Source: an uncultured Chromatiaceae bacterium (GTDB taxonomy: Bacteria; Pseudomonadota; Gammaproteobacteria; Tenderiales; Tenderiaceae). From it: DNA of 64,000 nt. How positions within the stretch are numbered: position 1 is the first letter of the stretch; the number at the start of each line of letters is the position of its first letter. The notes beneath the pieces were generated by a model. That model saw only the letters and a program-made list of their open reading frames with translations, did no database searches and was not told the DNA's origin. A program made the position numbers and the translations under genes. Positions 3,023-46,476 of the stretch are shown here, one piece after another. The stretch is taken from NCBI GenBank assembly GCA_945787785.1, contig CALZIO010000007.1, positions 14,946 to 78,945 of the forward strand, written 5' to 3'.

Positions 3023-3641
3023 CGAGCATTGCTAGATCATTGGCCAGCTTCAAACGACCCTCGGCAAACCAGCCAATCGCCTCAGGATAAATCCGATGTT
3101 CCTGCTGCAATACACGTTGCGCTAATAGTTCGGGTGTATCACCCGGCTCGATTGCTACAGTGGCACGATTGACCACGGGTCCGCCATCAAGCTCCGGTGT
3201 AACAAAATGAACACTCACGCCATGTTGATTCGAGCCTGACTCAATGGCACGTTTATGGGTATTCAAGCCTTGAAAATTGGGCAACAAGGAGGGATGAATG
3301 TTCAACATGCGCCCAAGATAATGATTTACAAATTCTTCGGTCAGTATGCGCATAAAACCGGCGAGCACTACCAGGCCAGGCTGGTAATGATCAATTTGTT
3401 GACTTAGGGCCTGGTCGAACGCTCGACGATCGCTAAACTGAGTGTGATCCAGCACGTGGGTTGGGATGCCGGCCTGTTCGGCCCGGTTCAGGCCAAAGGC
3501 GTCGGCACGGTTGCTGATAACTGCCTTGATGTCCGCATTAATCTGACCACTGGCGCAGGCATCAATTATCGCTTGCAGATTACTGCCGCTGCCGGAGATC
3601 AGCACCACCAATGCCAGGGGTGATTGCTGTGATTGCGCCAT
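2988..3641 (-). CDS. purN: Phosphoribosylglycinamide formyltransferase
   Basis: ISGSGSNLQA, LAGFMRIL, NIHPSLLP and HFVTPELDGGP motifs. Confidence 0.97.
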   Translation of the reverse strand: MAQSQQSPLALVVLISGSGSNLQAIIDACASGQINADIKAVISNRADAFGLNRAEQAGIPTHVLDHTQFSDRRAFDQALSQQIDHYQPGLVVLAGFMRILTEEFVNHYLGRMLNIHPSLLPNFQGLNTHKRAIESGSNQHGVSVHFVTPELDGGPVVNRATVAIEPGDTPELLAQRVLQQEHRIYPEAIGWFAEGRLKLANDLAMLDGEPVPQLEKH

Positions 3642-3644
3642 AGC

Positions 3645-4703
3645 TTACTTTTTTAGGACGACAGCTTCGTCAGCGGCGCTCGAGTTATGAATAGTGCCAA
3701 TATGCCAGGCGGTTTCGCCGTGGCTGCGCAGGCATTCGAGTGCGCTGTCCAAGTCTTCCGCAGCAACAATCACTGTCATGCCTACGCCACAGTTAAAGGT
3801 GCGATGCATCTCTTTTTCTTCAACATTGCCTTGTTGTTGCAGCCAGTCGAAAATGGCGGGACGCTGCCAGGATTGGATTGAAATCTGTGCCTGACATCCT
3901 TCAGTCATTACACGAGGCAGGTTTTCCAGCAGACCGCCACCTGTGATGTGGGCAAGGGCGTGGACGTCTACTTTACTGAACAAATCCAGTAGTGATTTGA
4001 TGTAAAGACGGGTCGGTGCCAATAGTGTTTCGCCCAGGGTGCTGTCTTCGAACGTGTCATCCAGTTTGGCGCCACTGACTTCGATTATTTTGCGGATCAG
4101 GGAATAACCATTCGAGTGGGGGCCGGATGATGCCAGGCCGACGATGACATCGCCTGCGTTGACCTTGCTGCCATCGATGATTTTGTCTTTTTCCACCACA
4201 CCAACACAGAATCCAGCCAGGTCGTAGTCTTCGCCATCGTACATACCGGGCATCTCAGCGGTTTCACCGCCGATCAGGGCGCAACCCGCCTGTTCGCAAC
4301 CAGCGCCGATGCCTGTTACGACAGCAGCAGCGGTGTCGATGCTTAGTTTTCCAGTGGCATAGTAGTCGAGAAAAAACAGTGGTTCAGCACCTTGCACGAT
4401 CAGATCGTTGGCGCACATGGCAACCAGGTCGATACCAATGGTGTCATGCTTGCCCATCTCCATGGCTAGTTTCAGCTTGGTGCCGACGCCATCGGTGCCT
4501 GAGACCAGAACCGGCTGTTTGTATTGCTCGGGAATTTCAAACATAGCGCCAAAGCCGCCAAGGCCGGCTATCACGCCGGGTCGGCGTGTCCGCGCTGCAA
4601 TTGGCTTGATGATATCTACCAGGTTGTTGCCTGCTTCAATATCCACTCCAGCATCGCGGTAGCTCAGGGAGTTTGGTTTTTGTGGGTCCTGGGAGTTACT
4701 CAT
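3645..4703 (-). CDS. purM: Phosphoribosylformylglycinamidine cyclo-ligase
   Basis: [31 protein letters not shown] and FNCGVGM motifs. Confidence 0.97.
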
Positions 4704-4840
4704 AGATGTGATTCGCTCTTTCAAAATATCCGATGGCGCCAAGAAAGTGTATTATTTTAAATGATCTTGTCAGGAACAGCGACATATAATCAGCGACTTA
4801 GATAATTACAACGAAACTGCTGCTAGAGTTGGGCGGTTAA

Positions 4841-5980
4841 GTGTTTTGGAGTTTACTTTTGACGAATTACTGGAAAACGCGGTTCATCGGGCTGATGCTT
4901 GTTATTCAAGCGCTATTTATTTTGCCCGAACTGAATGCCGCAGAGGTTAAAGGGCTGTATCAGGCCAAGGTGCCGGTAGCTAATCAAACCCGTGAACAGC
5001 GCCTGGAGGTTTATCCCGATGCGTTGGCTCAGGTGGTTGTAAAACTGACGGGTGATCAAGCTGTGGCTGATCTGGCTGAATTATCGGGTCTCATGAAGCG
5101 GGCGCGAACGCTGGTACAACAGTTTCATTACGAGGAGTTAGCGCCTGATAGTGAAGCTTTGATCGAGGAGGGTTTTACGCGCCTGCTGGTGGTTAGTTTT
5201 GATGATCAGGCAATTACCCAGGCATTAATTGAGGCAAATGTGCCGCTTTGGGGGCATACGCGCCCCGAAGTGTTGCTGTGGTTGGCGATTGAAGACCGGG
5301 AAACGCGCTATATTCTGGCTGCAAATGCCTCAGCTGAATTAGAGACTTATTTGGCAAATCACGCAAAGGTGCGTGGTCTGCCCCTCATTTTGCCCTTGGT
5401 GGATCTTGAGGATCAGGCGCAGCTGAGCTTTGCCGATGTCTGGGGAGATTTCCGCCCGAATCTTGTTCAGGCTTCTCAGCGTTATGGTGTTAAAGCGATT
5501 CTGGTCGGTCGTTTGATTCGTTCCAGTCGAGGGATGTGGCAGGCGCGTTGGAGTTTGCATTACAACAACGACGTTACCACGCCATCTGAATATTGGCATG
5601 CAGAGGTGAATTTGCAGCAGGAGGCACTGATTGTTGGTGTTGATGGTGCCGCCGACAGGATTGCGCAACGCTATGCTCAGCTCTACAGCATAGGTTCTGC
5701 CGACTCCGTTGGCATAAAGATTAAAGGCGTAAATGATCTGGCCAGCTATGCCCGTTCGATGAAATATCTTGAGTCACTGGACATTGTGACGGATGTCAAT
5801 GTAGTCACTGTCAGGGCAGATGAAGTACAGTTCTTGCTGGATATCCGCGGTGACAGTCGCGGCTTGGAACAGGCTATCGCACTGGGGGGCACGCTGGTTC
5901 AAATTGGTGATGAAGATGCACTGTTGATTGAGAATGGAACAGCCTCTACAAGGGCGTTTGTGTATCAGCTTTTACCATGA
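4841..5980 (+). CDS. DUF2066-family periplasmic protein
   Basis: Signal peptide; LY.A.VPV, PLWG..RP..LLWLA and RGLPL.LP..DLED motifs; divergent from purM as is typical. Confidence 0.8.
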   Translation: MFWSLLLTNYWKTRFIGLMLVIQALFILPELNAAEVKGLYQAKVPVANQTREQRLEVYPDALAQVVVKLTGDQAVADLAELSGLMKRARTLVQQFHYEELAPDSEALIEEGFTRLLVVSFDDQAITQALIEANVPLWGHTRPEVLLWLAIEDRETRYILAANASAELETYLANHAKVRGLPLILPLVDLEDQAQLSFADVWGDFRPNLVQASQRYGVKAILVGRLIRSSRGMWQARWSLHYNNDVTTPSEYWHAEVNLQQEALIVGVDGAADRIAQRYAQLYSIGSADSVGIKIKGVNDLASYARSMKYLESLDIVTDVNVVTVRADEVQFLLDIRGDSRGLEQAIALGGTLVQIGDEDALLIENGTASTRAFVYQLLP

Positions 5981-36187: not shown

Positions 36188-38140
36188 TCAGGCGACGCGC
36201 GCGAGTACCATAAGCTGGTAGGGTTCAATCACGAGTTCCTGAGTCGCGGTGATTACACGCCCAGCATAGAGATCAACCATAGTTTTACGCATGCCCATCT
36301 GCCGTAGGCGCCGGGCCTCGAGACGTTGCTCCAGTTCACTGAAGTTGGCCAGCACAAAGACCATGTGCTGCCCGTTACTTCTAAAGAAGCCGAACACCTG
36401 CTTATTGCCGGTCTGTACGAACTCCGTTTCGCCACGGGCGAAAGCCAAATTTTGGCCGCGGAGCTGAATGAGGCGCAGCAGCCCCTGATAGACGTGCCCG
36501 GCGGGTGATTCAAGTTCGCGGCGCTGTTCAGCCCGTTCCCAGTCGAATTGCGTGCGGTGCAGCCAACGTGAGTCGCCCACCTTGGCAGGATCCTTGTCAT
36601 AGCCATATTCATTGAGCGTAGCAATCTCGTCGCTGAGATAGATAAGAGGAATCCCCCCCATTGTGATTATTACGCCGTGGATGAGCAGGGTGCGCCTCAC
36701 TGCAAGCTCCAGCCCGGTGTCATCCTGCTCCGCGAGTGCCTTCTCGATGCCCGTGAGTGAGGAGCAGGTGCCAGAGACACGGGCTTGTCCAGTGCGGGGG
36801 TCTTCCTGGAAGGGTGCGCCATGGGCGAAGCTGCCATCGAAGTGTCCAGTGTAGAAATGCGTCAGGAAGCGGCGGTGCTCGTCTGGATCGAAACCGAAGG
36901 CCTGCACATCATCATTGGCAAATGTCCAGCCAATGTCATCGTGGCAACGTACATAATTCACCCAGCAGCAGCCTTCCGGAATGGTGTAGCGGTGCCCCAT
37001 GGCGTAATGAAGCACACGCGTGTCCCGGGTAGCAAGTGCCTCCCACAGCAAGGCCATTAGTTGTGGATTATAAGAGAGCTGGCATTCACCCATGTCGATA
37101 TATTTATTCACTTCGTCTGGGTGCACGATGGCCTCGGATTTAAACACCATTGCTGGTGCAGCGATACTAGCAATGGCGTTGAATGCCTGGATGATCCAGT
37201 GGGCCTCTGGCAGATTTTGCGAATTGGTTCCAAGCCGCTTCCAGATGAAGGCAACGGCGTCCAGGCGCAAAATCTCTACCCCTTGATTGGCGAGGAATAG
37301 CATCTCCTCCAGCATGCGGTTGAACACCTGCGGGTTCTCATAGTTAAGGTCCCACTGATAGGTGTGGAAGGTGGTCCATATCCATTTTTTAATGCGGGTT
37401 CGATAAGTGAACGCTCCGGGATGATCCTCGGTGAATACCTCCGGCATAGTGCGCTCGAATGCGTCAGGCATCTCCCGGTCGGGATACATGCGATAAAAGG
37501 CTTGGTACTCCTTGTCACCGGCCAGGGCCTGCTGTGCCCACTCGTGTTCATCCGAGGTGTGGTTGAAGATAAAATCAAGAACCAGGGAAATGCCGTGGTG
37601 ACGTAGTTCCGTGGCGAGCGCCGCCAGGTCTTCAGTAGTGCCCAGTCGTGGGTCTATCTCGCGGTAGCTGCTGACCGCATAACCGCCGTCGTTATCGCCG
37701 GCTGGGACTTTGAATGGCGGCATAAGGTGCAGATAGGTAATGCCGAGTTCAGTAAGTTAGGGTATGCGCTCACGCAGTCCCTTAAGGTTTGTTGCGAAAA
37801 GATCTACATAGCACATGGCTCCCACCATGCGATTCGAGTGATACCAGTTCGGATCTGCTTCTCTCAGAGCATCCAGCGCTTTTAGCTCGGCCGGGCGTTC
37901 CAGCCACATCTCGGTCGCGGAAGCCAGCATGCTCTCCAGATGATAGTAGAAGTCGTAGTGCGTGCCGTAGAGGCCATGAAGGCGCTCGAACAGACGCGGG
38001 AAGTGTCGTTTAATCCGTTGTGTATAGGCCTGCCATTCAACAGCATCCGTTCTGTCTTTAAAGCGGGTCTCTATCCGCGGCAAGAGTCGCTTAAGGGCTG
38101 TGGCGCTATGTTCTTGCAGCCAGTCTTGGCTATTGGCCAT
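36188..38140 (-). pseudogene. Amylosucrase-like GH13 enzyme with one in-frame nonsense codon
   Basis: AGGAGG RBS, ATG 38140; YVDLFA, DGGYAV, DFIFNHTS, RLDAVAF, KSEAIV and VRCHDDIGW motifs; TAA at 37757-37759 within RIP*LTELGITYLHLMP. Confidence 0.88.
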
Positions 38141-38378
38141 TGATCCTCCTGTTTGGGTTTTCATGATGCAGCATTGCGCGTGCATAGAGCAAGTTACGTG
38201 GTGTTAGGGTTGCTCGTGTTTCGGCCCACTGGCTAGGGATATGGCTAAAATGTGATTGGTGCGTTGCGCGTCGCGCAAATAATAATTGTTACTTATGTAT
38301 TTGGACTAAACCCACAGTGGGTGATATTTAACACCTCACCTTGCCCTCTCCTCTTCAAGAAGAAAGGGCATAAAGGCG

Positions 38379-40943
38379 CTAAGCCGCAACGATCGGAATT
38401 ACCTTCTCTGCCACTTTTTGATACGACTCAATCTCATTGAAGTTGAGATAGCGGTAGATATCATCGGCCATGGTGTCGAGCATTTTCACCGCATCCATGT
38501 ACTCAGCCACAGTGGGTATCTTGCCCATCTGGGCACAGACCGCGGCCAACTCGGCTGAGCCGAGATAAACGTTGGCATCTTTACCCAGACGATTGGGGAA
38601 GTTACGCGTCGAAGTGGACATGACAGTAGAACCATCTGCTACACGTGCCTGGTTGCCCATGCACAGCGAACAACCTGGCATTTCGGTACGGGCACCCGCT
38701 TTGCCGTAGATGCTGTAGTAGCCTTCTTCGGTGAGTTGATGGGTGTCCATTTTGGTCGGTGGGGCAATCCATAAACGTGTTGGCACGGAGCCACCAAAGG
38801 CTTCCAAGACTTTGCCTGCCGCACGGTAGTGACCGATGTTGGTCATGCAGCTGCCTATGAAGACTTCATCGATCTTGGTGTTGGCCACTTCAGACAACAA
38901 CTTCACATCGTCCGGATCATTGGGGCAGGCGACGATGGGTTCCTTGATGTCAGCCAGGTCGATCTCGATGATCTCGGCGTATTCGGCGTCGGCATCGGCT
39001 TCCAGCAATTCAGGCTTGGCCAACCAGGCTTCCATGGCCTCGATACGACGGCTAATCGTACGCTTGTCTTCATAGCCGTTGGCGATCATCCACTTCAGCA
39101 GAGTGATATTTGAATTCAGGAATTCAATGATGGGTTCTTTACTCAGCTTGACGGTGCAGCCGTTGGCGGAGCGTTCGGCCGAGGCGTCTGACAATTCAAA
39201 GGCCTGTTCGACCTTGAGATGTTCCAGCCCTTCGATCTCCAACACGCGACCTGAGAAGACGTTTTTCTTGCCCGCCTTTTCAACCGTCAACAGACCTTTC
39301 TGGATCGCGGCGTAAGGAATGGCGTTGACCAGATCACGCAGGGTGACGCCGGGCTGCATCTCGCCTTTAAAGCGCACCAGCACCGACTCAGGCATATCCA
39401 GCGGCATGACGCCCAGGGCGGCACCGAACGCCACCAGACCGGAACCGGCCGGAAAACTGATACCAATCGGGAAACGGGTGTGTGAGTCACCGCCAGTACC
39501 AACGGTATCAGGCATCACCATGCGATTGAGCCAGGAGTGAATCACGCCATCACCAGGACGCAGGCTGACGCCGCCGCGATTTTGGATGAATTCGGGCAGT
39601 TCGTGCTGCAGATTGATGTCTACCGGCTTAGGATAGGCGGCGGTATGACAGAAAGACTGCATCACCAGGTCCGCCGAGAAACCCAGGCAAGCCAGCTCTT
39701 TAAGTTCATCACGGGTCATGGCGCCAGTGGTGTCTTGTGAGCCGACCGTGGTCATGCGTGGTTCGCAATAGGTGCCGGGACGCACGCCCGCAATACCACA
39801 GGCCTTGCCGACCATCTTTTGTGCCAGGGTGAATCCCTTGCCGGTATCAGCGGGAACGTCGGGACGCATAAATGTTTCTGAAGGTTTCAGACCCAGGGCT
39901 TCGCGAGTTTTGTCGGTTAGTGAACGACCAATAATCAGCGGGATTCGGCCACCGGCGCGGATTTCGTCCGGCATGGTGGAGGGTTTCAGATCAAAGCTGG
40001 AAATCACTTCGCCGGCTTCATTTTCGATCACGCCATCATAAGGTTTGATCGTAATCACATCGCCCATATTGAGTTTGCTCACATCGCACTCAATGGGCAG
40101 GGCGCCGGAGTCTTCGGCAGTATTAAAAAAGATCGGGGCGATCTTGCCACCCAATATTACGCCACCCTGGTGTTTGTTGGGTACGTAAGGGATCTCGTGG
40201 CCCATGTGCCACAGCACGGAGTTAATAGCAGATTTACGCGAAGATCCGGTGCCGACCACATCGCCGACATAGGCCATTGGGTGGCCTTTCTGTTTCAGTT
40301 CTTCGATCTTGTTTAAACCATCAGGCATCTTACTGATCAGCATGGCCTTGGCGTGCAGAGGAATGTCGGGGCGGCTCCAAGCTTCAGAGGCAGGTGACAA
40401 GTCATCGGTATTGGTTTCACCCTCGACCTTGAAGACGGTGATCTTGATCTCTTGGGGCATCTCGGCTTTGTTTGTAAACCAGTCGGCATTGGCCCAGGCA
40501 TCAGCGACCTGTTTGGCGAACTCATTACCAGCCTTGGCTTTTTCGATGACATCGTTAAAGGCATCGAACATCAATAGGGTCTTGGACAGGGCCGTCACAG
40601 CAATGGGTGCCAGCTCGCCATCGTCGAGCAGTGAAATCAGTGGTTGGATGTTGTAGCCGCCCAGCATGGTGCCAAGCAGTTCAGCAGCCTGTTTTTTGTC
40701 GATTAGAGGCGAGTTAGCCTCGCCCTTGGTAATGGCAGCGAGAAAACCGGCTTTAACGTAGGCGGCCTGATCAACACCGGGTGGAACGCGATGTGTGAAC
40801 AGCTCGACAAGTGCTTCTTCTTCACCTGTAGGCGGGGTCTTGAGCAACTCAATTAAATCAGCAGTTTGCTGGGCATCCAGGGCGAGGGGCGGCAGCCCCT
40901 CATTGGCGCGTTCTTGTACGTGTTGGCGGTATGTTTCTAACAC
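38379..40943 (-). CDS. acnB: Aconitate hydratase B
   Basis: [47 protein letters not shown] and [10 protein letters not shown] motifs. Confidence 0.98.
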
Positions 40944-41135
40944 TTAAACACCTCTATTCTAAATATTTTTTAAATCGAGAATCGGGCGATTTTACCCTAT
41001 TTGTGAAGGAAGCACTAAATCGAGGGTATCTGTCTCGAAATGTGAGTATTTGTTAATTGCAGCTATTGAAGGGTTCGGTTTTCGTTGAGGTGTGTCGATA
41101 TCTCATGAGTTAACTATTAAGACAGGGAATTTCTC

Positions 41136-41528
41136 ATGGCAAAAGTGCGATTTATGGTGGTGGATGATCAGAAATCAATTCGCTTCTTATTGAGGTCAAT
41201 CATTGAAAGTCTCAGTGCTGAAGTGATAGATGAAGCGGAAGACGGCGAGCAGGCAGTTGCAAAGTATGCCGAGCATCGGCCTCATATCACCTTGATGGAT
41301 ATCAATATGCCAAAGAAAGATGGGGTGGCTGCGCTGAAAGAAATAATGGCAATCAATAAAGATGCGATGGTCATCATGTTGACATCCCAGAACTCCATGG
41401 AAGTAGTCAAAGAGTGTTTAAGCATAGGGGCGCGCAATTTTCTACTCAAGGACAATCCTCCAGAAGAACTACTCAAGGAGATCAAAAGCAGCTGGGAACA
41501 ATATAAGAACGAAATTTCTGCTGTTTAG
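41136..41528 (+). CDS. Stand-alone CheY-like response regulator
   Basis: VVDD, MDINMP..DG phospho-acceptor, MLTS and FLLK; no output domain. Confidence 0.92.
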   Translation: MAKVRFMVVDDQKSIRFLLRSIIESLSAEVIDEAEDGEQAVAKYAEHRPHITLMDINMPKKDGVAALKEIMAINKDAMVIMLTSQNSMEVVKECLSIGARNFLLKDNPPEELLKEIKSSWEQYKNEISAV

Positions 41529-41536
41529 GATCGAAT

Positions 41537-41854
41537 ATGGCCTGTAATCATAAAAATCCACCGGGAGTGGCGTTTTGTGTAGTTTGCGGGTGTTCCCGGC
41601 CTCACCAACGCTGTGACCGTTGTGGTGCCGTGTGTGATGAGCGTTTCCTTTATTGCGGTCAGTGTGGTTTTGCTCTTGCTGATCAAGTGCAGCCAACACA
41701 GCGTGCCCTTGTGTCCGGCAGCAATACCTACGACCTAGCTACTCTGATGGGCGCCGTGGGTAAGAAGGATGAAGTGGCCAAGATCGAGTCCAAGAGTAAG
41801 GCCAGTCAGGACGATATCAAGGCCCTGTTGGCTGCCAAGAAAAAAGGGAAATAA
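41537..41854 (+). CDS. Double zinc ribbon protein with a C-terminal SQDDIKALL peptide
   Basis: C.H.N.....FC..CG, C..CG and YC..CG pattern; AGGA RBS. Confidence 0.8.
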   Translation: MACNHKNPPGVAFCVVCGCSRPHQRCDRCGAVCDERFLYCGQCGFALADQVQPTQRALVSGSNTYDLATLMGAVGKKDEVAKIESKSKASQDDIKALLAAKKKGK

Positions 41855-41859
41855 ATACC

Positions 41860-43533
41860 ATGTTGCTTACGGACAAGCTGGTTGCTGATTTCCGCGAACG
41901 GGGTGGTCTGTGCGATGAGGATTTAGCTTCTGCCCGTTCCGAAGCAGGCCAGAATGCCTTTGATTTTGCTGTTTGCCTGATTCGCCAGGGAATGATGTCT
42001 CGCGATGAAGTTGGCATGGTCATGGGAGATTCACTTGGTTGTGCCTACATGAACCTGGAGAAGACCCTGTTTCAGCAAGATATAGTCAAAATGCTGCCGC
42101 ACCGGGATGCTGAACGCCTCGAGGCGATTCCAATATATAAACTTGGTGAGGCGATTACGCTCGCGACCGTACATCCTGAGGACATCATGGCAAGCAATGA
42201 AATCCGTGATCGCCTTGGCGAGGTGGATATACTTTTCACACTGCCCGATGAGTTGGCCGCGGCCATTTCAGTGCAATACGAATCCAGGAGCCATGTTGAT
42301 GGCCTGTTCAAGGGCTTGGATTTCTCGGTGTTGGAGAAAATGGAGGAAGGTGTCCGATCTGACCAGCAATCAGTGGTTCATGCCTCTGATGCCCTGATTA
42401 TGCTGGCGCTCAAGGAGGGTGTGTCAGATATTCATATTGAACCAAAGGCAAACCGGTGCGTGGTGCGTTTTCGTGTTGATGGTGCCCTGGCGGAGCGCAT
42501 GGTGCTGGACATCAATATCTCGCATACCCTGATTTCACGTTACAAAGTGCTGGCGCAGATGGATATATCAGAGCGGCGCAAGCCACAGGATGGGCGCATA
42601 AATTTCAAGACGCCAATTAAGCAGATTGATATTCGTGTAAATACCCTGCCGACAATTCATGGTGAAACCATGGTCATGCGTCTGCTTGGTTCCCTGTTTG
42701 GTGGTGTGGAACTGAATTTGGATGAAATGGGGATCTCTGCACAGGTGCTTGATCGCTTTAAAGCGGCGTTAAAGCGCCCCAATGGTTTGGTTCTGGTAAC
42801 TGGTCCTACTGGTTCTGGAAAGTCAACAACACTGTATGCAGGTCTGAATTATATTGATAAGCCTGATATCAAGATTATGACAATCGAAGACCCGGTAGAG
42901 TATGAAATGCCCAACTTCACCCAGTCGCAGGTGAACGTCAAGGTAGGTCGTACTTTTGAATCGGTGTTGCGCGCAGCCTTGCGCCAGGATCCGGATGTCT
43001 TATTGATAGGCGAAACTCGTGATGCTGAAACAGCCAGAATTGCTGCGGAGGCGGCGCTGACAGGACATTTGGTAATGAGCACGCTGCACACCAATAATGC
43101 ATTGCAGGCTTTGACGCGATTGTTAGACATGGGGGTGGAGTCCTATGTGATTGCGCCAGCGTTGGCCGGGGTGCTAGCGCAGCGTCTACCTCGAAAGATA
43201 TGTGAACACTGTAAAGCTGCTTATCAATCTACTGAAGATGAACTGAAGCTGTATTTTCACTGGGCTGAAGACGTCAATCTGCCAACACTTTATCGTGGCA
43301 AGGGTTGTGAAAAATGTGATGGCAGTGGTTACAAAGGGCGTATCGGAATTCACGAATTTGTTGAAATTGATCTGGGATTGCGTGAACTCATTATTCAGAA
43401 TGCCGGTTATGCAGAATTGCGTGATTATGCCTTTGGACATGGCTATCGGGAGATGCGTTACGACGGTTTCATCAAGGTATTACAGGGGTTGACGACAATC
43501 GAGGAAGTGGTCAGGGTAACCTCAACTGATTAG
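41860..43533 (+). CDS. GspE/PulE/PilB family secretion ATPase
   Basis: SDIHIEP, RFRVDG, PQDGRI, GPTGSGKST, TIEDPVE, LRQDPD..LIGE.RD, TGHLV.STLH and two CxxC. Confidence 0.95.
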   Translation: MLLTDKLVADFRERGGLCDEDLASARSEAGQNAFDFAVCLIRQGMMSRDEVGMVMGDSLGCAYMNLEKTLFQQDIVKMLPHRDAERLEAIPIYKLGEAITLATVHPEDIMASNEIRDRLGEVDILFTLPDELAAAISVQYESRSHVDGLFKGLDFSVLEKMEEGVRSDQQSVVHASDALIMLALKEGVSDIHIEPKANRCVVRFRVDGALAERMVLDINISHTLISRYKVLAQMDISERRKPQDGRINFKTPIKQIDIRVNTLPTIHGETMVMRLLGSLFGGVELNLDEMGISAQVLDRFKAALKRPNGLVLVTGPTGSGKSTTLYAGLNYIDKPDIKIMTIEDPVEYEMPNFTQSQVNVKVGRTFESVLRAALRQDPDVLLIGETRDAETARIAAEAALTGHLVMSTLHTNNALQALTRLLDMGVESYVIAPALAGVLAQRLPRKICEHCKAAYQSTEDELKLYFHWAEDVNLPTLYRGKGCEKCDGSGYKGRIGIHEFVEIDLGLRELIIQNAGYAELRDYAFGHGYREMRYDGFIKVLQGLTTIEEVVRVTSTD

Positions 43534-43538
43534 CGCTA

Positions 43539-44396
43539 CTATTTATTTTCTGCTGCGCTTGCTTTTAGCAGGATTTTATCCAATAAAGACGTTGGCAAAG
43601 ACCGCCGTAATACACTCGCAATATAGGTAGGCGTGGTAACGTAGTAACGCGTTTTGGGCCGCGGGGATTCCAATGCATGGATGACTTTTTTCAGAACTGC
43701 CTCGGGGGGCAGGGTGAAGGGCTGGGCATGGCCTTTTTTGCTGAGCCGTTTTTCCACGCCTGCATAATAATCACGGTGGGCGCTGTGTTCGCGGTCGATG
43801 TTTTGTTTGAACATGGCGAAGGCATTGGCACGAAATTGACTCTCGATCGGGCCTGGCTCTATCAGCGAGACATACACGCCGCTGTTGTTCAGCTCTAGCC
43901 GTAAGGTATCGGTTAATCCTTCCATGGCAAACTTGCTGGCGTTGTAGGCGCCCCGATAAGGCAATGCCACAAGTCCAAGAATGGAGCTGTTCTGAATAAT
44001 GCGGCCATAACCCTGGTTGCGCATCACTGGAATAACACGATTGGTGAGTTCATGCGTGCCGAACAGGTTGGTCTCAAACTGTTCTCTCAAAACATCACGG
44101 CTTAAATCCTCGACTGCACCAGGCTGGCCATAGGCGCCATTATTAAACAAGGAGAATAGTTCACCCTGAGTCTCGTATAAAACAGCATCTACCGCGATAT
44201 TGATTGAGTTTGAATCAGTCAGGTCGAGCTGGAAACTTTCCAATCCCTGGTTACTTAACTTTTCCACATCTTCAGATTTGCGGGCGGTGGCAAAAACGCG
44301 ATAGCCACGCTGTTTTAGCCCCAAGGCGGTACACAGGCCAATGCCGCTGGAGCAGCCGGTGATCAGGATCGGTTTTGATGCATTAATGTGGGGCAT
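43539..44396 (-). CDS. SDR family oxidoreductase (YbbO-like)
   Basis: ITGCSSGIG, LFNNGA, YNASK and IEPGPI motifs. Confidence 0.93.
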   Translation of the reverse strand: MPHINASKPILITGCSSGIGLCTALGLKQRGYRVFATARKSEDVEKLSNQGLESFQLDLTDSNSINIAVDAVLYETQGELFSLFNNGAYGQPGAVEDLSRDVLREQFETNLFGTHELTNRVIPVMRNQGYGRIIQNSSILGLVALPYRGAYNASKFAMEGLTDTLRLELNNSGVYVSLIEPGPIESQFRANAFAMFKQNIDREHSAHRDYYAGVEKRLSKKGHAQPFTLPPEAVLKKVIHALESPRPKTRYYVTTPTYIASVLRRSLPTSLLDKILLKASAAENK

Positions 44397-44431: not shown

Positions 44432-44519
44432 TATATTTGTCAGATACCTGGCAGATATGTGCCTGTAAATGATGTTGATTATTGTTAGATTCTAACAGGT
44501 GGGGGAATTAACTTGGACC

Positions 44520-45047
44520 ATGAAAGATAAATCTATCATCCCGACGGACCGGGAACGGGTCATGCGAGAAAACGATTTTATTGTCTCGAAAACTGATCTC
44601 ACGGGGAAAATCACCTACGCCAATCGCATATTTCAGGAATTTGCCGGTTATACAGAAAGCGAATTACTCGGAACGCAACACAATATTGTACGCCACCCTG
44701 ATATGCCAAGAGCGGCATTCAAATTGGTTTGGGACACCATCAAAGCGAAGCAGGAATTTTTCGGTTTTGTAAAGAATATGGCCAGTGACGGTTCTTACTA
44801 CTGGGTGTTTACCCATATCACACCGTCTTACAATCGTGAGGGTAAAGTCATTGGCTATCTTTCTGTCCGTAGAAAGCCTAGGGTTGAAGCGGTCAACACG
44901 ATTACGGGCTTGTATCAACAGATGCTAAGTATCGAGAAGCGGAATAGCCCTAATCAAGGGATGGATTCTTCGACAAAATTCTTATTGGATTTTCTGACTG
45001 AAAAAGGGGCTTCGTATGAAGAGCTTATTCTCGCTCTCCAGGGCTAG
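44520..45047 (+). CDS. Stand-alone Aer-type PAS protein (CetB-like)
   Basis: [23 protein letters not shown]...F...W, VKN...DG..YWV and GYLSVR motifs. Confidence 0.9.
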
Positions 45048-46476
45048 TGTCGTCATTGGCTTAACCATGCTCGCGGTGGCGATGGCTGCTTATGTCAGCT
45101 TTGTGTTTGGGCTGGATTGGTGGATTATGGGCATGGCCTTGGCTGCAGTGGTTTTTGCGCTGATGTTTGGTTTCTCAAATGATCAAAAAGATCATGAAGA
45201 GCTGCTCAACAAAGTTGACGAGGTCATCAAGCAGGTGGCCGCCGGCGAGGTAAATAATCGGGTTGTGAATATTCATGATGGCAAGCTGGGAGAAGTGGCG
45301 TGGCATCTTAATGACATGCTCGATCAGTTGGAAACTTTTTTTCATGAAGTCAAAACCTCTTTTGATCATGTGAGTCAAGGTAAATATTATCGCCGCCCAA
45401 TCTCGGCTGGTTTACATGGCGACTTTGAAACAGTCTTGGATCAGCTTGATGGTTCGCTGGGCCTTATTGTTGAAAGTAAAAAAGAGGGTGGCAAAAATCA
45501 GCTTTTGAGTCGTCTGGGTCAATTGAATACAGAAAACTTATTGGTCAATCTAAAGCATGCACAAACTGACCTGGCCGATGTGAACGGTCAGATGGAAAAT
45601 GTGCAGGGCATTGCCCAGAATACTGCGGAACGTGCCGGGCAAAGCAGTCGGCAAATCGGCAATGTACTCGGTAACCTCGGTGAGCTGAGTAAAATTATTA
45701 ATGCGACTGATGACACTGTGGCCGTGCTAAGTGAACGTACTGGAGAAATATCAAAAGTAATCAAAGTGATCACCGAAATCGCAGAACAGACCAACTTGTT
45801 GGCATTGAATGCAGCGATTGAAGCTGCCAGGGCGGGTGAACAAGGACGTGGTTTTGCTGTGGTGGCGGATGAAGTGCGCGCGCTGGCAAAAAATACCAAA
45901 AAGGCGACGCAGGAAATTAGTCCAGTGATTGAAGCCTTCACTGATGAGGCAGAGCTTATGTTGAAAAATGCCGCTGCGATGAAACAAATCGCTGAAGAAT
46001 CTTCGGGAGTGATTGGTGAATTCGAGGCGGATTTGACTGAGTTTGCCGCCTCAGCGCAGGAATCAGCTGTGCAGTTGACTCAAGCTCGTGATCGTAGTTT
46101 TGCCACACTGATCAAAATGGATCATGTCATCTATAAACAAAATACCTATCGCTCAATTGAAGCAGGGCTGGAATCGCCTGAAGGTCAGGCTGTGTCAGTC
46201 GATCATCATAACTGCCGCCTTGGCCGTTGGTATGAAGATGGTCATGGCCACGAGCAGTTTGGAAACATGCCCTCATACCAAAGATTGGAAGCGCCGCATG
46301 CACGTGTTCATGACCGTGCCCATGAAGTGCTCGATCTGATTAATACTGACTGGGCTAACAATAGAGATTCTATAAACACAATTGTGGTAGCGTTTGAAGA
46401 TATTGAATCCGCGAGCGGCGAGCTGATGGTGTTGATGCAGAACCTGGTAGAAGAGAAGGTTTCAGGACGCGGCTAA
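45016..46476 (+). CDS. Methyl-accepting chemotaxis protein with a C-terminal CZB domain (CetA-like)
   Basis: Two adjacent TM helices, HAMP-like region, MCP tip motif and DHV.YK...[11 protein letters not shown]...H..VH. Confidence 0.92.

Follow-up and report, generated by a model that had tools for sequence, protein, structure and literature searches.

A conserved operon of a CheY-like receiver, a double-zinc-ribbon protein and a PilB-like ATPase: a candidate phosphorelay-controlled motor module

Introduction

What might join a stand-alone receiver, a small zinc-ribbon protein and a PilB/GspE-type ATPase in one unit, and what would such a unit do? The question is raised by three co-oriented genes in a stretch of 64,000 nucleotides (nt) from an uncultured Chromatiaceae bacterium, hereafter the window, which lies on a 79-kb contig (C7) of an 83%-complete, 3.06-Mb assembly. 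The genes encode a CheY-like receiver of 130 amino acids (aa), a double-zinc-ribbon protein of 105 aa and an ATPase of 557 aa, and we refer to them together as the triad. The initial annotation of this DNA proposed that the small protein captures the phosphorylated receiver through a C-terminal tail resembling the peptides that bind phosphorylated CheY (CheY~P), and couples it to an alternative pilus or secretion motor, replacing cyclic di-GMP (c-di-GMP) control with phosphorelay control; recurrence of the triad elsewhere and conservation of the tail were named as tests. We find that the three genes are a conserved operon, and that this operon probably puts a motor ATPase under phosphorelay control.

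How motors of the PilB/GspE type are switched is under active study. Control is known to be exerted by c-di-GMP, through MshEN or FimX-PilZ, and by a small number of response regulators in direct contact with PilB. The operon described here suggests a third design, in which a small adaptor reads a receiver through a docking peptide of the flagellar type; if this is true, the "EIDALL" mode of CheY recognition is used beyond the flagellar switch and its phosphatases. The triad also provides an entry point to one of numerous orphan PilB-like ATPases. Our literature searches, which did not reach subscription journals or supplementary files, turned up no paper describing the combination of zinc ribbon, PilB-type ATPase and receiver, or the small-protein family, and no EIDALL-type motif outside flagellar proteins in this context, in keeping with the initial annotation, which knew of no description of the arrangement.

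Results and Discussion

Conservation of the triad

The three genes are separated by gaps of 8 nt (41529-41536, receiver to zinc-ribbon gene) and 5 nt (41855-41859, zinc-ribbon to ATPase gene), and are bordered on either side by minus-strand genes (Table 1), exactly as first annotated. The absence of a kinase, pilin, PilC/GspF or secretin gene nearby, also remarked on at that time, holds for more than the immediate vicinity: no platform protein (T2SSF), kinase (HATPase_c), secretin or prepilin N_methyl motif was found across the whole 79-kb contig, and the ATPase gene is thus not encoded there with a PilC/GspF platform, pilins or a secretin.

We found the triad in 36 further loci (37 with the window), of which 27 are in betaproteobacterial genomes, two in gammaproteobacterial genomes and seven on metagenome contigs. 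With the ATPase as query, a search that covered a single genome for each species gave three orthologs of 51-57% identity. Two of these (loci L018 and L019) have the order receiver, zinc ribbon, ATPase, and in the third (L020) a flavin reductase replaces the receiver. A metagenome scan seeded solely on zinc-ribbon patterns returned 52 loci. Seven of them have a full-length member of the small-protein family, and all seven have the triad, while the other 45 encode longer proteins sharing the zinc ribbon only (two were undetected on check), with no ATPase and no receiver. Finally, a genome scan seeded on the tail motif gave 27 family loci with betaproteobacterial record titles, a 28th, partial match being left out. 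These belong to the Gallionellaceae, Rhodocyclaceae, Sterolibacterium, Sulfuritalea and Nitrosomonadales, and the receiver is directly upstream and the ATPase downstream in every one. As the betaproteobacterial loci were found via the tail, only their receiver and ATPase count as independent evidence. Their receiver reading frame typically ends at position 5004 and the zinc-ribbon match starts at 5001, and therefore the genes overlap.

The 37 loci are far from independent, and represent about four lineages: the window with L157, L018 with L019, L158 to L163, and the betaproteobacterial group. Genes outside the triad vary by lineage, with kinases following it in the betaproteobacteria, so that the conserved unit is the triad itself. 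The open reading frame (ORF) upstream of the triad in L157 begins like the 854-aa aconitase-like protein of the window, and those preceding it in L159 to L161 are presumably tat-like, judging from their first residues. That the three genes are mere neighbors with no common function is very hard to credit, since the same order and tight spacing are kept in 37 loci of at least four lineages with differing outer neighbors, and since the ATPases form a co-inherited clade. The recurrence of the triad in other genomes, on which the initial annotation had staked its proposal, is thus well established.

Several irregularities were seen among these loci. In five of the six loci of the metagenome lineage L158 to L163 (L158-L161 and L163; for example, L161:6115-6483), the ATPase is followed by another stand-alone receiver of the CheY-like kind; in L162 the contig breaks off within the ATPase gene. 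The reading frame of the ATPase is interrupted in L150 (5318-7018) and L155 (5001-7015), and the zinc-ribbon gene is frameshifted in L155; these interruptions may be assembly errors or pseudogenes.

Table 1. Positions, strands and supporting evidence for the triad, its parts and the neighboring genes (numbering of the window)
Feature	Position	Strand	Evidence or remark
Alpha-amylase-family ORF	36188-37723	-	Starts at profile position 46
142-aa ORF	37757-38185	-	No Pfam match
854-aa ORF	38379-40943	-	Upstream flank of triad, divergent
Intergenic region, 192 nt, presumed operon promoter region	40944-41135	.	Between divergent 854-aa gene and receiver gene
Stand-alone CheY-like receiver, 130 aa	41136-41528	+	Pfam Response_reg, 1.5e-27
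Double-zinc-ribbon protein, 105 aa, proposed adaptor	41537-41854	+	Pfam DZR, 6.3e-07
Double zinc ribbon, residues 2-44, four Cys pairs	41540-41668	+	Pfam; conserved Cys
Middle "YDL" helix, residues 64-79, candidate ATPase-contact element	41726-41773	+	L67 invariant; predicted helix 67-79
C-terminal motif S90-Q-D-D-I-K-A-L-L98 and basic end, proposed receiver-docking helix	41804-41851	+	Conservation; predicted helix 91-104
PilB/GspE-type hexameric-ATPase homologue, 557 aa	41860-43533	+	Pfam T2SSE, 1.3e-127
ATPase N-terminal (N1) region, residues 1-140, MshEN-like	41860-42279	+	Weak MshEN match, residues 59-137, 3.8e-07
Short-chain dehydrogenase	43539-44396	-	Pfam adh_short, 7e-40; downstream flank of triad
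PAS protein	44499-45047	+	Overlaps start of chemoreceptor gene
Chemoreceptor	45016-46476	+	Pfam MCPsignal and C-terminal CZB zinc-binding domain

The zinc-ribbon protein and its tail

The 105-aa protein belongs to the DZR family by a score just above the cut-off (29.9 against 27.3 bits), and its Pfam matches are limited to DZR and Zn_Ribbon_1. A PilZ-type adaptor was considered and ruled out, as Pfam finds no PilZ domain. Both the double zinc ribbon and the C-terminus are as the initial annotation had given them. An AlphaFold2 model (mean predicted local distance difference test score, or pLDDT, 77.7) has the zinc ribbon at residues 1-48, a low-confidence linker, and helices at 67-79 and 91-104. 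We found no similarity to a solved structure outside the zinc ribbon: Foldseek matched nothing in the Protein Data Bank (PDB) at E <= 0.001, PDB sequences searched by profile yielded generic zinc ribbons only (the best being ArnA, E 0.006), and the matches in the ESM Atlas were solely to clusters named "double zinc ribbon".

Some 50 proteins of 83-141 aa match the protein over its full length among the best 150 profile matches from an exhaustive search of 1.84 billion representatives, the remaining matches including many generic zinc-ribbon proteins. This family, of proteins of 100-120 aa, is rare. In a class-wide sample of 400 scored genomes, the only full-length match was that in the window's own genome, and the other 20 matches were zinc ribbons within larger proteins or broken frames. 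An alignment of 41 members has three conserved parts, the zinc ribbon, the YDL helix and the C-terminal helix. Seven cysteines of the ribbon (C3, C14, C17, C26, C29, C40 and C43) are invariant or nearly so, and together with L67 in the YDL helix and Q91 and I94 in the tail they make up the conserved set. Of these, Q91 is invariant and I94 nearly invariant. The YDL helix would be a point of contact with the ATPase. The adaptor is the fastest-evolving of the three proteins: its identities are 33-55%, those of the receiver 55-74% and those of the ATPase 49-78%. Nonetheless, the core of the adaptor's tail is invariant.

The consensus of the tail is [ST]-Q-D-D-I-x-x-[LM]-L. A looser form, Q-x-[DEQ]-[IV]-x-x-h-h within the last 35 residues, is found in 50 of 72 small family proteins; the 22 without it comprise 16 that are flavin-reductase-linked by sequence, four near misses and two with no such tail. 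Among the 2804 ORF products of the window's own genome, the strict motif occurs in the last 35 residues of one, the window protein itself (the loose form in six), and a chance occurrence of the tail is thus an insufficient explanation. The strict motif is present in all 10 receiver-linked loci whose discovery did not depend on the tail, so that the tail has passed the test of conservation set for it. The model predicts a helix on a flexible linker, as expected of a docking peptide, and the core D-I-K-A-L-L is both conserved and predicted to be helical. For complex prediction, the receiver alignment (A8) reached 0.21 and the zinc-ribbon alignment (A6) 0.20, both under the mark of 0.32, and we take these scores as evidence neither way on binding.

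We considered whether the tail might instead be an amphipathic basic targeting helix, which would place the ATPase at the membrane, the cell pole or a nucleic acid, with an indirect link to the receiver. A run of Lys and Arg residues does follow the motif in the window protein and in the betaproteobacterial members, and the tail is predicted as a terminal helix. However, the family does not conserve the basic run: several members finish in acidic or neutral residues straight after the motif, and the part that is conserved is the acidic-hydrophobic core Q-D-D-I-x-x-L-L. There is also little reason for a targeting helix to decay once the receiver is lost (see below), and we regard this explanation as improbable.

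A related group of double-zinc-ribbon proteins (P0024 to P0027, 109 aa, metagenomic) has the C-terminus L-D-Q-E-E-I-D-[RK]-L-F, which is closer to the flagellar EIDALL motif than is the tail of the window protein. No member of this group was found among the genome contigs searched for the species set.

Loss of the receiver in the Methylococcales

Six Methylococcales loci (L098, which is the same place as L020, and L099 to L103, with L101 and L102 nearly identical) have a flavin reductase, a zinc ribbon and an ATPase, and no receiver. In L020, the flavin reductase is at 3148-3645, the zinc ribbon at 3675-4004 and the ATPase at 4001-5677. The protein in place of the receiver has a Flavin_Reduct domain and 163-193 aa. 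The small proteins of these loci retain the zinc ribbon and the YDL helix (R, Y, D and L invariant or nearly so), while the tail is degenerate or gone: the strict motif is found in none of the six and the loose motif in one (L100), and several members, those of L099 and L103 included, end before the motif. No receiver ortholog was found in any of the five receiver-less assemblies searched (best match 33% identity, E 2e-18), whereas one was found in each of five control triad genomes, at 51-56% identity. The tail is thus lost together with the receiver, while the zinc ribbon, the YDL helix and the ATPase remain, and the link between tail and receiver proposed by the initial annotation gains comparative support, which is the chief evidence for our reading.

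In a rooted tree of the ATPases, the receiver-less clade is nested, as the sister of the betaproteobacterial clade (support 83/90), with the other receiver-bearing lineages branching earlier, and a single loss of the receiver is therefore the simplest reading. The swap of receiver for flavin reductase is a rare natural exchange of input that has left a visible trace in the adaptor. The Methylococcales form may be a sister module, with a redox input replacing the phospho input.

These loci also bear on an alternative in which the receiver acts on the ATPase directly, as single-domain response regulators act on PilB in Xanthomonas, and the zinc-ribbon protein has its own role as a cofactor (for instance in assembling or inhibiting the ATPase), with a tail that contacts the ATPase or some third partner. 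Direct binding of response regulators to PilB is documented, in the accessible parts of the reports, for EmvR (PMC11973254) and DrdR (PMC13507683), and the zinc-ribbon/ATPase pair persists without a receiver in the six loci, from which it follows that the pair works as a unit on its own. Direct action nevertheless leaves unexplained both the decay of the tail upon loss of the receiver, with the zinc ribbon, YDL helix and ATPase kept, and the likeness of the tail to the CheY~P-docking motif (as described in the accessible part of PMC9126983). We consider it unlikely, although it would not be without precedent.

The catalytic boxes of some Methylococcales ATPases are altered. That of L101 (5324-7003) has changes in the Walker A, Asp box, Walker B and His box, and in that of L100 (5324-7000) an Arg replaces the first His of the His box. 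As far as can be judged from the residues, these two ATPases may be inactive or decaying.

The receiver and its phosphorelay context

The receiver has the acidic pocket (D10 and D11), the phospho-acceptor D55, T83, the aromatic F102 and K105. Across 22 aligned receiver orthologs, D11, D55 and K105 never vary; two orthologs have Glu in place of D10, two have Ser in place of T83, and either Phe or Tyr stands at residue 102. Orthologs of 46-74% identity occupy the same position in the 36 other loci. The closest solved structures are CheY proteins (6er7, 1.1e-21; 1tmy, 1.8e-20), although the receiver does not reach the NCBIfam equivalog cut-offs for CheY (85.8 against 200, and 46.9 against 189). 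There is no genomic link to CheA or CheW, the CheW genes of the host genome being on contigs C13 and C52.

A same-strand histidine kinase is present in 23 of the 27 betaproteobacterial loci, directly after the ATPase in 22 and upstream in L144. The remaining loci include one with an Hpt protein only (L154) and two that end too early to judge (L134 and L135). The neighbors that we scanned include a GAF-PAS-PAS-HisKA-HATPase-REC hybrid kinase and a set composed of a REC-kinase, a REC protein and an Hpt protein. L144 has an Hpt-REC-GGDEF protein, and L131 a PAS-GGDEF-EAL protein upstream. These kinase and Hpt genes lend support to the phosphorelay input suggested by the initial annotation.

In the window's own genome, a 682-aa ORF on another contig has a kinase core (C13:29142-29867) that shares 51% identity with the hybrid kinase found after the triad in the Gallionella locus L131. 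On the strength of this identity it may be offered as a lead, and as no more than that, to a partner of the window's receiver.

The ATPase and its clade

The 557-aa protein belongs to the T2SSE or PilB/GspE superfamily by its domain, its four boxes and its tetracysteine site. When aligned with the PilB and GspE of its own genome, the Walker A, Asp box, Walker B and His box are intact, and the C-x-x-C ... C-x-x-C zinc site of the C-terminal domain is present and aligned, as the initial annotation had read them. In NCBIfam it falls between GspE and PilB, missing the equivalog cut-offs for both GspE (504.9 against 630.25 bits) and PilB (502 against 675.65).

The MshEN motif for c-di-GMP consists of two tandem 24-residue stretches of the form RLGxx(L/V/I)(L/V/I)xxG... 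(PMC5013675). Like the MshE/MshEN ATPases, the window's ATPase is a member of the same family with a Pfam MshEN match in its N-terminal region. Unlike them, it has K-L-V and D-F-A where the MSHA-type ATPase and two orphan ATPases of its own genome carry R/K-L-G, which agrees with the RLG signatures having been called missing at the outset. None of the 18 triad-clade ATPases examined matches a relaxed form of the 24-residue motif, both stretches being missing in all 18, while matches were obtained for the MSHA-type and 811-aa ATPases of the own genome and for the distant relatives L046 and L062. Because the motif is absent, the ATPase is not an MshEN-type c-di-GMP receptor, and we rejected c-di-GMP gating via MshEN as an explanation of its control. 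The notion that phosphorelay control has replaced c-di-GMP control has no support, however: many PilB/GspE relatives also lack the motif, and GGDEF and EAL genes stand beside some of the betaproteobacterial triads.

The 22 ATPases that adjoin a zinc-ribbon gene form one clade in the rooted maximum-likelihood tree (support 100/100), and a quick tree agrees. Outside the clade are the own genome's GspE, PilB, MSHA-type and other orphan ATPases, along with the best distant matches. ATPases of the clade always follow the zinc-ribbon gene. The stem of the clade is long, at 0.55 in the quick tree and 0.3 on either side of the root in the rooted tree.

The own genome has seven long ATPases of the PilB/GspE type, four PilT-like ones and only three platform genes. 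The platform genes are in a type II secretion system (T2SS) cluster, a pilBCD cluster and an MSHA-like cluster, each beside another ATPase; with seven long ATPases to three platform genes, four of the long ones, including that of the triad, are orphans. FliM, FlhA and CheZ were not found in the assembly, which is 83% complete, and the host may thus be without flagella.

The identity of the machine, if any, that the ATPase serves is a separate matter from the input. The genome encodes three pilus or secretion machines at other sites, and the ATPase may drive one of these or something different. The "alternative pilus or secretion motor" of the initial annotation was a guess that our analysis does not support. 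It is also conceivable that the module is unrelated to pili and secretion, and that the clade has another task, such as a purely signaling or remodeling one, controlled by the receiver and the adaptor. In favor of this, neither contig C7 nor the listed neighbors of the inspected loci include a platform protein, pilin or secretin, the clade is set apart by its long stem, the genome has more long ATPases than platform genes, and PilB has been reported as a signaling protein in Myxococcus (PMC5544727, in the part available). Yet the motor motifs and the zinc site are all intact, as in working motors, and orphan ATPases can serve machines encoded elsewhere, so that we hold a role apart from pili and secretion to be doubtful on balance. 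It concerns the output only, and is compatible with what we propose for the input side.

The three further orphan ATPases of the PilB/GspE type are encoded at C39:6553-8373 (606 aa), C107:637-2409 (590 aa) and C11:50372-52807 (811 aa). Two of the three carry R/K-L-G signatures. The 811-aa ATPase is extended at its N-terminus by about 270 residues, in which Pfam finds no domain with confidence.

A proposed mechanism

Our proposal is that the triad is a single signaling operon of a phospho-switch, an adaptor and an output ATPase, an interpretation to which we would give an even chance. The receiver would be phosphorylated by a kinase, which is encoded by an adjacent gene in the betaproteobacteria and would be encoded elsewhere in the window's genome. 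The active receiver would then dock on the C-terminal helix of the zinc-ribbon protein, through a motif of the same kind as the N-terminal EIDALL of FliM. The zinc ribbon and the YDL helix would hold the adaptor on its dedicated PilB-like ATPase, and with the adaptor so held, phosphorylation of the receiver would switch or relocate the ATPase. Judged from comparison of the sequences, binding in this manner is plausible, the case for it being about evenly balanced. The scheme presumes both of the protein contacts, as it does a need for phosphorylation and the sign of the effect, and it is synteny that suggests the contact between the zinc ribbon and the N-domain of the ATPase.

Of the interpretation with which we started, then, the syntenic triad, the coupling of tail to receiver and the phosphorelay input are supported, while neither a takeover from c-di-GMP control nor an output in pili or secretion finds support.

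Several observations count against our proposal. No kinase gene adjoins any of the 10 triads from gammaproteobacteria and metagenomes. A fusion of receiver to ribbon or of ribbon to ATPase was found neither in 10 long profile matches scanned with Pfam (drawn from about 100 long ones among the 150 profile matches listed) nor in 18 "longer" matches. The residue after the Ile of the tail, the third position of the D-I-K-A-L-L core, is Lys or Arg in most members and Asp in EIDALL, and therefore the tail is not a plain copy of the FliM peptide. One receiver-less protein, that of L100, keeps a motif-like Q-E-D-V-K-Q-I-L. The contrast between loci with and without a receiver comes down to a single loss event, which means that the loci cannot be counted as independent; the search for the receiver ortholog was made in metagenome-assembled genomes of unstated completeness; and, given the altered catalytic boxes in L100 and L101, part of the decay of the tail could be a general relaxation of the module. 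Lastly, conservation of the alpha4-beta5-alpha5 face in receivers has many causes.

Comparison with known systems

Some of the reports on which the following comparisons draw were accessible in part, and what we say of FliM, CheZ, CheF, FimX, EmvR, DrdR and the PATAN regulators refers to the accessible parts. FliM binds the alpha4-alpha5 groove of CheY~P via its EIDALL helix (PMC9126983, PMC6946799). Like the FliM and CheZ peptides, the tail of the zinc-ribbon protein is a short helical terminal motif on a flexible linker, with an acidic-Ile-x-x-Leu-Leu core after Ser/Thr-Gln (PMC9126983, PMC6946799), and the partner gene likewise encodes a CheY-like stand-alone receiver. Unlike in FliM, the motif is at the C-terminus, of a protein that is no flagellar switch protein, and the residue after the Ile differs as described above.

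A second parallel is with the archaea. The archaellum ATPase is a member of the PilB/GspE/FlaI superfamily. The archaeal adaptor CheF binds CheY~P by its C-terminal part and passes the signal on to an ATPase-driven machine (PMC9126983), as we propose for the zinc-ribbon protein here. CheF, however, is a PH-domain dimer that touches CheY near the phosphorylation site and not at the alpha4-alpha5 groove (PMC9126983), and the host of the triad is a bacterium.

In Xanthomonas and Pseudomonas, an adaptor of about 110 aa bridges a signaling protein and the pilus extension ATPase in the FimX-PilZ-PilB system (PMC11656802, PMC11973254). The triad would similarly place a small adaptor between a signaling protein and an ATPase. 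There, the input is c-di-GMP sensed by FimX and the adaptor has the PilZ fold (PMC11656802, PMC11973254), whereas the triad has a double-zinc-ribbon adaptor, a receiver as input and an ATPase in a clade of its own. It shares no adaptor domain with either FimX-PilZ-PilB or the CheF system.

Phosphorelay control of a PilB-type ATPase by a receiver with no output domain is also known from EmvR, DrdR and the cyanobacterial PATAN regulators (PMC11973254, PMC13507683, 10.1101/2021.06.11.447907). As described there, these act without an adaptor on the canonical PilB of a known pilus, and their genes are orphans and not part of an ATPase operon.

Taken with these precedents, the triad might be a case in which a free-standing zinc-ribbon adaptor reuses the CheY~P-docking helix of the flagellar switch and gates PilB-like ATPases of a dedicated clade. 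It would be a bacterial counterpart of the archaeal link from CheY through CheF to the archaellum, in bacteria for which our searches turned up no flagellar genes. We advance this tentatively, as something possible that falls short of an even chance. Such an adaptor would be built of modules, with the zinc ribbon and the YDL helix to hold the ATPase and the tail to hold the input protein, and the input would hence be exchangeable, as in the Methylococcales, where the receiver has given way to a flavin reductase and the tail has been discarded. The ATPase clade, for its part, may drive a process not yet known.

Surroundings of the locus

The 854-aa minus-strand ORF upstream of the triad is one that we take, from its sequence, to be aconitase B. 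A promoter in the 192-nt region between it and the receiver gene is presumed, as a consensus scan for promoters and terminators gave no signal above shuffled expectation. Among the sequencing runs listed, no RNA run carried the sequence, and one DNA run had a small share (0.08) of its words.

Just beyond the dehydrogenase gene, the PAS gene overlaps the start of the chemoreceptor gene. We considered whether this pair might be part of the triad system and dropped the idea, as it is not kept beside the triad in L157 or the other loci. On the far side of the presumed aconitase gene, the 142-aa ORF is directly upstream of the alpha-amylase-family ORF on the same strand, and as the latter starts well into its profile (Table 1), a stop or frameshift may have divided a single gene into the two, or else the start may have been called wrongly.

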